A stretch of DNA of 44,212 nucleotides from Methanocellales archaeon (GTDB lineage: Archaea; Halobacteriota; JAWCLZ01), in assembly GCA_038850285.1 (NCBI GenBank), contig JAWCMA010000009.1:1-44212 (forward strand), written 5' to 3'. Numbering within the stretch: position 1 is the stretch's first letter; every line of letters begins with the position of its first letter. This document shows, in pieces, positions 19,094-21,527 of the stretch. The notes below the pieces were generated by a model. It was not told the origin of the DNA, did not search any database, and was given only the letters and a program-made list of their open reading frames with translations. The translations under genes and the position numbers were made by a program.

Positions 19094-20128
19094 ATGAAAA
19101 AAGCAGCCATAATAAAAGGCGATGGCGTGGGACCAGAGCTTGTAGCTGCTATGCTCAAAGTACTTAAGGTTACCGAGCCAGAAGTTGAATTCATACCCTG
19201 CAGCGCAGGAGCGGAGTGGTGGGAAAAACATGGTGGAGATTCCCTAATACCAGAGGAGACCTGGGAGATATTGAAGCAAACTGATGCTTGCTTTAAAGGC
19301 CCAACCACCACTCCCGGCGGAATAGGAACGCCTAAGAGTGTCGCGGTTTCAATAAGGCAGAGGTTCAATCTCTATGCAAATATTCGCCCGATTAAAACCA
19401 TTCCTAATGCCCCTTCTCCCCTAGGCGATGTTGACTTCGTATGCATACGAGAAGCCACTGAAGGGCTATACTTTGGAGCTGAATTTAAACTATCAGATGA
19501 TGTTTATATTGCTATTCGCAAAATTACCAGAACCGCGAGTGAAAAAATCGCTAGATTTGCATTTGAAGAAGCTAGGAGGAGGAACTGGAAAACAGTCGTG
19601 GCGATACATAAGAGCAATATATTGAAGCAAACCTGCGGAGTCTTCTTGGAATCTGTCCATAAAGTGGGAAAAGAATATGGAGATATAGAAATCTGGGAAT
19701 ATCACATTGATAACATGGCTCAGCAGTTAATTAAAAACCCTCAGATCTTCAATCAGAAAATCCTGCTTTCCACCAATCTCTTCATGGACATCATCAGCGA
19801 GGAATGCTCAGCACTCGTGGGAAGCATAGGCTTAATTTATTCCGCGAATATAGGCGATACCTATGCCATGTTTGAACCAGCACATGGCTCAGCACCTAAA
19901 TATCGCGGCTTGGATAAAGTGAATCCAACTGCAACCATATTAGCTGGAGCTTGGATGCTGGATTACCTAGGCGAAGAAGCAAAGGCAAGGTCAATCTTTA
20001 AGGCTACTGAGCGCGTGATCTCAGAGGGCAGATATGTAACTTACGATCTAGGTGGAAATGCAAAGCTAAGTGAAATGGCAGATCAAATTGCAAAATATAC
20101 AAAAGAAGAACTTAAAAAAGAGGAATAG
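19094..20128 (+). CDS. Isocitrate/isopropylmalate dehydrogenase family protein (IDH-like, NADP-type motif)
   Basis: GDGVGPE, KGPTTTPG, LYANIRP, REATEGLY, HKSNI, FEPAHGSAPKY; SD AGGAGG. Confidence 0.88.
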   Translation: MKKAAIIKGDGVGPELVAAMLKVLKVTEPEVEFIPCSAGAEWWEKHGGDSLIPEETWEILKQTDACFKGPTTTPGGIGTPKSVAVSIRQRFNLYANIRPIKTIPNAPSPLGDVDFVCIREATEGLYFGAEFKLSDDVYIAIRKITRTASEKIARFAFEEARRRNWKTVVAIHKSNILKQTCGVFLESVHKVGKEYGDIEIWEYHIDNMAQQLIKNPQIFNQKILLSTNLFMDIISEECSALVGSIGLIYSANIGDTYAMFEPAHGSAPKYRGLDKVNPTATILAGAWMLDYLGEEAKARSIFKATERVISEGRYVTYDLGGNAKLSEMADQIAKYTKEELKKEE

Positions 20129-20129
20129 C

Positions 20130-21527
20130 ATGGCGAAGCTAATCTTCGCAAATTCAATTGAAGCTGGAGTTTCACTTTTAAACCACGAGTTATTAAATAA
20201 GGGAATAGAGAGACCCTCTCCTCGTGGAAAGGTAGTTTTCCTCCCCGAAGTTCTCTTAATAGTGGAAAAACCCGAGGTTATAGTTCCCGAGAAATACTCC
20301 AATCCCCTGCTCGTGGAGAAGCCCAATGAGAAGTGGTTAATTGAAAATGAAGATGGCACTTTTGAGACCTATCATCAAAGAATTACTAAACCAATAGACC
20401 AGTTAAAAGCGGGAATAGAATTGATCAAGCAAGTGCCTTATTCCAGGCGCTTCTCCATAGCAGTTGCTCGCCCGTGGGATATAGTTGCGAGAACCCCTCC
20501 ATCGCTGCTAGAAATCTATGTGCAAGTCACCCCTTCTAATTTGAAAAATCAAGTTCATTTAACCGGAGTATTTCGAAGCCTAGATACCTATAACTTCCTA
20601 GATTTGAACATGCTCGGCTTGACTGAAATTCTAGATTTAATCTGCGAGCAAACTGGTTATGCAAAGGGCACTTTAGGGCTATTCATAGTTAATGCACATT
20701 ATTACAAGCGAGATGAATCAAGGGTTAAGCAGCTTAAGCCAGCGATTCCAGCGAAGCCAAATAAACACGCCTTTTTGATCGAGTCAGAGAATATACCATT
20801 TGGCTGGAGGCAAACTCTAGAATATGTCTTCTACGAAGGCTTTGAAGATCGCACTCAATGGGGAGAAGTTTTCGAGAAACAAGCACGCGCTAGATTTGGC
20901 CACCGCGTTTTAGTGGATATTTCAAATCCCCTTGAAAATATGCTCGATGATAAAGCGCCATTCACAGCTAGATATGGCGAGGAATATGCAATGCGCTATA
21001 TCCTAGGCGTGCCAAATGTGGAGAGAGAAGCAGGGGAAAAGGACATCATCCTAGAGCAGGGAGAAGTATATTCCTATGCTTCAAGAGCGAGATACGATCG
21101 CAATGATGTGATAAATTTTAAAAGAGTCCCCATCGATCAGCTATTTCACGCGATTCAAAAGTTGAAGCAGAATAAATACACTAGACAGGCCTTCGTGGTT
21201 ATATCCAGACCCTGGGACGTATTTCTCAAAGACCCAGCTTGCTTGCGGTGCTATTGTTTCTATGCCTATGATGAAAAAACCCTGGGTTTATCGCTTTTCA
21301 TGCGCTCCAACGATGCATTTGGCGCGACCCACGCGAATCAATATGGCTTCGCGCGCTTAGCGGAGTTTGCAGCTATGAATAGCGGTTTTGAAAAAGTGCG
21401 CTTCACATTGCTCAGTGCCAATATGCATATCTATGGGGATAGCTGGAAAGCAGTTAAGGATCTCCTTCGCCCTGAAATGCCCACAGCTGCTGAAATACTG
21501 GGATTGAGGAAAAAAGAAAAAAGATAG
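20130..21527 (+). CDS. Tandem (two-domain) archaeal thymidylate synthase-fold protein
   Basis: Two copies of the motif series Y..R / DQL / (S,T)R(R,Q) / PWD / P.(S,C)L / RS.D / N / H.Y; ATG 20130 after GAGGA. Confidence 0.85.
   Translation: MAKLIFANSIEAGVSLLNHELLNKGIERPSPRGKVVFLPEVLLIVEKPEVIVPEKYSNPLLVEKPNEKWLIENEDGTFETYHQRITKPIDQLKAGIELIKQVPYSRRFSIAVARPWDIVARTPPSLLEIYVQVTPSNLKNQVHLTGVFRSLDTYNFLDLNMLGLTEILDLICEQTGYAKGTLGLFIVNAHYYKRDESRVKQLKPAIPAKPNKHAFLIESENIPFGWRQTLEYVFYEGFEDRTQWGEVFEKQARARFGHRVLVDISNPLENMLDDKAPFTARYGEEYAMRYILGVPNVEREAGEKDIILEQGEVYSYASRARYDRNDVINFKRVPIDQLFHAIQKLKQNKYTRQAFVVISRPWDVFLKDPACLRCYCFYAYDEKTLGLSLFMRSNDAFGATHANQYGFARLAEFAAMNSGFEKVRFTLLSANMHIYGDSWKAVKDLLRPEMPTAAEILGLRKKEKR

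Follow-up and report, generated by a model that had tools for sequence, protein, structure and literature searches.

Thymidylate synthase (TS) of the ThyA type is an obligate homodimer. For decades, laboratory-made heterodimers have served in the debate on its half-the-sites reactivity and on how its subunits communicate. A gene from an archaeon labelled Methanocellales raises the question of what becomes of such a dimer when both subunits lie in one chain and only one of them has kept the catalytic Cys residue. The gene is located on contig JAWCMA010000009.1 (assembly GCA_038850285.1), whose positions 1 to 44,212 are referred to here as the window. An earlier note on this DNA, made from the sequence alone, had described the gene product as a fused pseudo-dimer of two TS domains with one composite active site. 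On the basis of sequence comparison and structure prediction, the tandem protein is probably the organism's synthase for deoxythymidine monophosphate (dTMP) and would act as a single-chain pseudo-heterodimer with one active site.

Two thymidylate synthase domains in one chain

Two series of TS-fold motifs within a single open reading frame (ORF) had been noticed in the sequence, and profile searches support this reading. PF00303 matches each half of the protein when it is searched alone, with an E value of 6.9e-10 for residues 1-237 and of 2.4e-14 for residues 238-465 (bit scores in Table 1; curated cut-off 24.3 bits), and the whole protein scores 89.2 bits. The NCBIfam model TIGR03283, which describes the methanogen-type TS, spans each half nearly end to end. 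Alignment of the two halves with each other gave 28% identity over 121 amino acids (aa; E 5e-14), with Ser125 placed opposite Cys371. Both domains are short, comprising about 205 and 258 aa, and they are joined by a linker that leads from the last helix of domain 1 to the first strand of domain 2 and differs in length and sequence among homologues. Alignment to the family profile assigns the key residues of domain 2 to those of the L. casei TS (Table 1), and the same L. casei residue numbers occur in titles of PDB entries among the structural matches described below.

Predicted structure and packing of the two halves

An AlphaFold2 model based on 20 sequences (predicted local distance difference test, pLDDT, 88.0; predicted template modelling score, pTM, 0.90) has its strands and helices in parallel order in the two halves. 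A Foldseek search with this model returned 396 PDB matches at E <= 0.001, nearly all of them ThyA or other TS-fold enzymes and each covering about half of the chain. The top match was 9iqu, a short phage TS-fold hydroxylase for deoxycytidine monophosphate (dCMP), followed by ThyA of many species, and the matches to ThyA structures had a probability of 1.00.

When the two halves were submitted to complex prediction as separate chains, the interface score ipSAE reached 0.93, compared to 0.00 for the best control. For comparison, this mark was attained in 58 of 80 solved complexes and in 2 of 110 mismatched pairs. At least 93% of the contacts were shared between runs, and the partner pLDDT was at least 86. 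The tightest predicted contacts pair equivalent positions of the two halves (147-390, 185-428, 127/128-373/374 and 4-216). The resulting interface is pseudo-twofold and sheet-to-sheet, and it includes the Arg loops (104-107, 350-353) as well as the RS motifs (149-150, 392-393). The profiles, the AlphaFold2 model and the predicted interface support the view of the earlier note that domain 1 has a TS fold and that the halves pack in a ThyA-like manner, and a pseudo-dimer within one chain is the predicted arrangement of the two TS units.

Complementary residues suggest a composite active site

Residue conservation was counted in 123 cluster representatives of the family, all of them 400 aa or longer, after removal of three shorter sequences. 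The domain-1 residues R106 and R107 are present in all 123 representatives, and none of them has a Cys at the domain-1 catalytic position (position 125: Ala 103, Ser 17, Thr 3). In domain 2, C371, R352, R392, S393, D395, N403, H433, Y435, Y316 and R319 are each found in 123/123. The second Arg of the domain-2 pair is much less constant: position 353 is Asp in 100 representatives, Arg in 13, Gln in 5, Lys in 2, Asn in 2 and Thr in 1. The residue follows the lineage, with Gln in the lineage of the window, Arg in the relatives from Syntrophoarchaeum and Alkanophaga, and Asp in the Archaeoglobi.

These counts modify the complementary loss as it was first described. The change from RR to RQ in domain 2 was read correctly from the codons, and it turned out to be confined to the window's own lineage. 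Likewise, the proposed pattern of Ser/RR versus Cys/RQ holds across the homologues as a family-wide loss of the domain-1 Cys and an asymmetry of the Arg pair, but not in its literal form, Ser occurring in only 17/123 and Gln in only 5/123. RQ itself was weakened as a complementary loss, also by its occurrence in single-domain relatives that bear the Cys (10 of 99). Therefore RQ alone is no proof of a dead partner pocket, and it is the loss of the Cys residue that provides this proof.

A one-site dTMP synthase is suggested because the Arg pair is intact in domain 1, where the Cys is missing, and weakened in domain 2, where the Cys is kept. In the mechanism that we propose, the two TS folds would pack back to back like the subunits of a ThyA dimer, and catalysis would take place in domain 2 only, by Cys371 together with R392, S393, D395, N403, H433 and Y435. 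R106-R107 of domain 1 would complete in trans the site of domain 2 for the phosphate of deoxyuridine monophosphate (dUMP). Domain 1 would be an obligatory partner that contributes both the interface sheet and the Arg pair; since its nucleophile is lost, it should be incapable of the covalent TS reaction. A composite site of this kind, already put forward in the earlier note, fits the conservation of R106-R107 and C371, the missing domain-1 Cys, the predicted interface with both Arg loops, and the presence of a sole gene for TS or ThyX in the genome (see below), and it agrees with all the computational tests that were run.

A precedent exists in Escherichia coli. According to one report (PMC5981203), R126 and R127 of the E. 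coli TS are situated on a loop that binds the dUMP of the opposite protomer, and a heterodimer of wild-type and RR to EE mutant subunits has exactly one functional site. The tandem protein resembles this engineered WT/R126E-R127E enzyme in that one subunit gives the Arg pair and the other the Cys (PMC5981203). The engineered heterodimers are laboratory mixtures of mutant subunits, whereas the tandem is natural, covalent and conserved in at least two archaeal classes.

Alternatively, both pockets could be catalytic, with Ser125 or another residue as the nucleophile of domain 1. The window protein does have a Ser at the Cys position, and the remaining pocket is kept. Nevertheless, this explanation is hardly credible: position 125 is mostly Ala and never Cys, so no nucleophile is conserved there, and domain 1 is without about 20 residues between the P48 and Y56 columns, a loop that domain 2 and the single-domain relatives possess.

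The Cys-less pocket of domain 1

The domain-1 motifs RSLD and NAHYY had been regarded as drifted. This applies to D152, which is kept in only 106/123 representatives, and not to the key residues R149, S150, H190 and Y192, which are present in 123/123, as is Y81. R84 was found in 114/123 and N160 in 106/123. Only D152 and N160 are starting to vary within this pocket, and their ThyA equivalents are the cofactor- or base-contacting Asp and Asn. Judged from the alignment, the pocket shows no decay, since the residues that contact phosphate and sugar are invariant. Conservation of at least 97% in both groups of the family (Archaeoglobi and the Syntrophoarchaeum-like group) was seen at 63 positions, 48 in domain 2 and 15 in domain 1, and these 15 include six substrate-pocket equivalents (Y81, R84, R149, S150, H190, Y192) as well as R106-R107.

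As a separate observation, position 160 is occupied by Asp instead of Asn in 13 of 104 representatives from Archaeoglobi. This may be drift or may reflect an altered nucleotide recognition by the Cys-less pocket.

With its phosphate and sugar contacts kept, the domain-1 pocket may still hold a nucleotide without turnover. The earlier note had thought of a regulatory function. Domain 1 would then be an allosteric nucleotide sensor, in which dUMP, dTMP or another deoxynucleotide tunes domain 2 via the interface sheet. This proposal is based on R149, S150, H190, Y192 and the trans residue R352, which are kept in every member of the family, and we consider it rather unlikely. If it were true, the half-the-sites behaviour of ThyA would have been fixed by evolution as a regulatory and a catalytic half.

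The same architecture would also be compatible with a domain 1 that serves as a mere scaffold. Its pocket would bind nothing, and R149, S150, H190 and Y192 would hold the sheet and position the R106-R107 loop. Such a role is possible, although not the one we favour. It would account for the faster evolution of domain 1 compared to domain 2, for the variation at the base and cofactor contacts (N160 and D152 each replaced in 17/123), for the missing loop, and for the trans residue 353, which is Asp in most representatives and should repel a phosphate. It is less easily reconciled with the fact that six of the 15 conserved domain-1 positions are substrate-pocket equivalents and two more are R106-R107, or with the invariance of R352, which faces the domain-1 pocket.

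Probable role as dTMP synthase

No second PF00303 locus and no ThyX were detected in the window's genome (1.28 Mb, 93% complete), so that a search for another thyA or thyX left the tandem gene as the sole TS/ThyX candidate at this completeness. ThyX was likewise not found in any of five related tandem-bearing genomes. Both searches were applied to 64 genomes of Archaeoglobaceae: 48 encode the tandem without ThyX, 11 encode ThyX without the tandem (genera g15 and g55), five have both and none has neither, the genomes being kin, so that these counts represent about three genus-level events and are not a statistical test. Two enzymes that replace each other in dTMP synthesis would be expected to be distributed in this way.

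The genome of the window encodes methenyl-tetrahydromethanopterin cyclohydrolase (Mch); neither DHFR nor McrA was found in it at 93% completeness. The presence of Mch, together with the failure to detect DHFR, points to methylene-tetrahydromethanopterin (methylene-H4MPT) as the probable C1 donor. Chadwick et al. (2022; PMC9012536) proposed methylene-H4MPT as the donor for ThyA of related lineages.

Several observations, together with the kinship of the Archaeoglobaceae genomes just mentioned, weigh against a one-site dTMP synthase with a trans Arg pair. All five sampled genomes of genus g51 (G104, G165, G224, G304, G389) carry an intact tandem gene in addition to ThyX; therefore dTMP synthesis does not always depend on the tandem alone. 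The whole-protein score for TIGR03283 (142.9 bits) is below the equivalog cut-off of 174.55 bits. Among 99 single-domain relatives, 97 have the catalytic Cys, and the Arg pair is RR in 58, NQ in 24, RQ in 10 and another pair in 7. With RQ or NQ in 34/99, the family may depend on the Arg pair less strictly than bacterial ThyA, and many short archaeal-type TS-fold enzymes seem to work without classical use of a trans Arg pair. Moreover, the invariant residues R149, S150, H190, Y192 and Y81, together with R352, seem to exceed the needs of a mere scaffold, and domain 1 may have some further role. Finally, the complex prediction may reflect a memory of solved ThyA dimers, and it expresses likeness and not binding.

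Some of these points would also suit an enzyme that is not a dTMP synthase but another TS-fold pyrimidine modifier, for instance a hydroxymethylase or a hydroxylase, as the earlier note had considered. Besides the low TIGR03283 score and the coexistence with ThyX in g51, the best Foldseek match, 9iqu, is a phage dCMP hydroxylase (template modelling score 0.76 on the target), and the hydroxymethylase for cytidine monophosphate (CMP), MilA, is also among the matches listed. However, 9iqu shares only 17% identity, and its first rank is probably due to the short target (217 aa). In the TS-fold hydroxymethylases and hydroxylases for dCMP or CMP, an acidic residue as a rule replaces Asn at the base-specificity position. 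No acidic residue occurs at this position of domain 2, Asn403 being invariant as in dUMP-specific ThyA, and among the single-domain relatives Asp was found there in 2/99. Nor do the Cys, Tyr and Arg residues involved in the methylation chemistry vary. In addition, the tandem is the only TS/ThyX candidate in the window's genome and in the five relatives checked, and no Archaeoglobaceae genome is without both enzymes. Given the Asn residue and the distribution against ThyX, a function as nucleotide modifier is very improbable, and a dTMP synthase with one composite site is the interpretation that we retain.

Comparison with known enzymes and relatives

The tandem protein shares with homodimeric ThyA of L. 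casei and E. coli (PF00303, EC 2.1.1.45) the fold and the catalytic residues of domain 2. The sequence of the Arg pair is complete in domain 1 and half retained in domain 2, on loops placed in the predicted interface, which has the same back-to-back arrangement of beta-sheets as in ThyA. It differs from ThyA by having two diverged copies in one chain in place of two identical subunits, and by having one catalytic Cys per pseudo-dimer (C371, with S125 in domain 1) in place of two. Furthermore, its domains are short, and its cofactor is probably methanopterin and not folate. Older work on the L. casei TS reportedly found complementation between Arg and Cys mutants. Among the work cited in PMC5981203 is a paper by Maley from 1995.

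TIGR03283 is the best-matching model of both halves, and the methanogen-type single-domain TS shares with them the motifs xTRRA, PPCL, RSND and AHIY. The tandem is distinguished from this type by its architecture, by its score below the cut-off and by domain clades that are separate from the single-domain sequences.

Another case in deoxynucleotide metabolism is that of the thymidine kinases of Giardia and trypanosomes, which consist of tandem repeats with one degenerate repeat. They have reportedly been described as pseudodimers (PMC9190010, PMC5098729, PMC5803862). Their fold and reaction are unrelated to those of TS.

Long proteins with a short TS domain also occur among the other relatives of the tandem. 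These proteins of 450-496 aa (P0026, P0051, P0060, P0099, P0047, P0038, P0054, P0079) combine an MtrA-like domain, a TS domain and a PterinBD-DUF4346 region in seven of eight tested; P0079 is without an MtrA match and P0054 has a weak one. Unlike the tandem, they have only one TS domain, with unrelated domains on either side. Their architecture suggests a methanopterin-linked TS.

The two among the 99 single-domain relatives that have no catalytic Cys are the stand-alone TS-fold proteins P0097 (217 aa, PPSL) and P0108 (262 aa, FPAI), which keep the SRR motif. P0097 shares 36% identity with domain 1 and 24% with domain 2. On sequence grounds, both may be unfused partner subunits of the domain-1 type. 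A word-index search of limited sensitivity for stand-alone domain-1-like proteins of less than 255 aa found none, and the only match in a metagenome scan with P0097 was a distant Cys-bearing relative on L047. This TS-fold gene (L047:2-502) has KSAT in place of the Arg pair. It overlaps by a few bases with a gene (L047:495-1346) in which a PP-loop-like SGGMDS motif was recognised by eye.

Distribution and evolutionary history of the tandem form

The family comprises proteins from Syntrophoarchaeum, Alkanophaga, the small class to which the window belongs, and most Archaeoglobaceae. Nineteen homologues of nearly the same length share 46-91% identity with the window protein and derive from metagenome-assembled genomes (MAGs) labelled Methanocellales, Syntropharchaeia, Syntrophoarchaeum and Alkanophagales. 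A further 36 loci, from Archaeoglobi and with 32-41% identity, came from a genome scan. An exhaustive profile-free search of 1.84 billion representatives yielded four clusters at E <= 1e-30, all of them tandem proteins and one of them (P0020) incomplete; the next match scored 75 bits. A search seeded with one sequence from Archaeoglobi returned 108 proteins, including those of Archaeoglobus sulfaticallidus, A. veneficus, A. neptunius, Geoglobus acetivorans and G. ahangari. In the databases they are mostly named plainly "thymidylate synthase", and one is a "hypothetical protein".

The phylum was sampled with 401 genomes, and the tandem form is present in 65 of them: all four of the window's class, all members of two small families (3/3 and 2/2), one genome of family f32 and two of f36, and 53 of 64 Archaeoglobaceae, including seven single-contig genomes. 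The other 116 genomes with matches have single-domain ORFs only.

For a quick IQ-TREE analysis, 31 tandem proteins were cut into halves and combined with 45 single-domain relatives, omitting incomplete sequences (P0007, P0017, P0020, L041, L045) and tandems at least 75% identical to a retained one. Domain 1 forms one clade (Shimodaira-Hasegawa-like approximate likelihood ratio test, SH-aLRT, 99) and domain 2 another (SH-aLRT 100), both apart from the 45 single-domain sequences, which points to a single ancient duplication or fusion behind the tandem. Both domain clades divide alike into Archaeoglobi and the rest. The tandem was therefore already differentiated before this split. Since then domain 1 has diverged faster than domain 2: identity between the two groups is 27.0% for domain 1 and 39.8% for domain 2, within the Syntrophoarchaeum-like group 49.9% and 62.2%, and within Archaeoglobi 47.7% and 67.5%.

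In the genome collection, the class that includes the window's genome is represented by no more than four genomes at the species level. The closest public MAGs to the window's genome are labelled Methanocellales, and their TS halves group with those of Syntrophoarchaeum and Alkanophaga.

Significance of a probable natural one-site enzyme

The tandem proteins are already public under the plain name "thymidylate synthase", and their architecture is a variant of a known enzyme. Full-text literature searches, with subscription-only papers outside their scope, did not turn up any account of ThyA as a tandem or pseudo-dimer. The available parts of Chadwick et al. (2022; PMC9012536) and Laso-Perez et al. 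(2023; PMC9894754) discuss ThyA and ThyX in these clades and do not mention a tandem; their supplementary trees or alignments might show the lengths.

The family looks like a natural, covalent and permanently asymmetric version of ThyA, and this asymmetric form is older than the split of Archaeoglobi from the Syntrophoarchaeum and Alkanophaga lineages. If the proposed mechanism is true, life can be sustained with a single site per dimer. The protein would then offer a stable one-site TS for studies on communication across the interface and a means to ask why the Cys-less pocket has been kept. Cultured species of Archaeoglobus and Geoglobus carry the tandem, which makes it accessible to experiments. 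The account of thyA/thyX replacement in relatives of ANME-1 would be refined as well, the ancestral thyA of the clade being the tandem form.

Gene, start codon and neighbourhood

The codons named in the earlier note for R106-R107, S125, R352-Q353 and C371 were confirmed; they are listed with the other features of the gene in Table 1.

Table 1 Features of the tandem TS gene, with positions in the window
Feature	Position	Strand	Characteristics
Tandem TS-TS protein (P0001), whole ORF	20130..21527	+	465 aa plus stop
Domain 1, residues 1-207; TS fold without nucleophile, putative donor of the Arg pair	20130..20750	+	PF00303 39.0 bits, TIGR03283 66.9 bits
R106-R107, domain-1 Arg pair with a predicted reach into the domain-2 site	20445..20450	+	AGG CGC; aligns with SRR of solved TS
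S125, catalytic-Cys position of domain 1	20502..20504	+	TCG; Cys column of eight single-domain relatives
R149-S150-L151-D152, RSxD motif of domain 1	20574..20585	+	R149 and S150 in 123/123, D152 in 106/123; 149-150 in the predicted interface beside the domain-2 Arg loop
H190-Y191-Y192, equivalents of the sugar-contacting His/Tyr in domain 1	20697..20705	+	H190 and Y192 in 123/123
Linker, about residues 201-214	20730..20771	+	no regular secondary structure between helix 193-200 and strand 215-219 (model)
Domain 2, residues 208-465; predicted catalytic TS fold	20751..21524	+	PF00303 53.6 bits, TIGR03283 74.6 bits (238-465)
R352-Q353, domain-2 counterpart of the Arg pair (degenerate), towards the domain-1 pocket	21183..21188	+	AGA CAG; L. 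casei R178-R179
C371, predicted catalytic nucleophile	21240..21242	+	TGC; L. casei C198; 123/123
R392-S393-N394-D395, RSxD motif of domain 2	21303..21314	+	RSAD of L. casei TS (R392, S393, D395 = R218, S219, D221); 123/123
N403, base-specificity Asn of domain 2	21336..21338	+	L. casei N229; 123/123
H433-I434-Y435, domain 2	21426..21434	+	L. casei H259, Y261; 123/123

The ORF is translated without internal stops, and the ATG at 20130 is the likely start codon. In the alignment a MA(K/x)LIF motif opens all 19 homologues at the same start position as in the window protein. The upstream Iso_dh gene ends with a TAG stop at 20126-20128, and a GAGGA sequence is located at 20120-20124, ahead of the ATG. 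The ATG is favoured because the starts of the homologues agree with it and because of the upstream stop and the GAGGA sequence; an alternative GTG start at 20070 would run into the Iso_dh gene.

The neighbours of the TS gene encode an FtsJ/S4 methyltransferase, an ACT protein, an Iso_dh protein, an acylphosphatase, a DUF402 protein and an HMGL-like synthase, and a link to nucleotide metabolism was seen in none of them. The Iso_dh-family gene (19094-20128) ends two bases before the ATG of the TS gene, an arrangement that suggests co-transcription or translational coupling of the TS gene with an unrelated metabolic gene.

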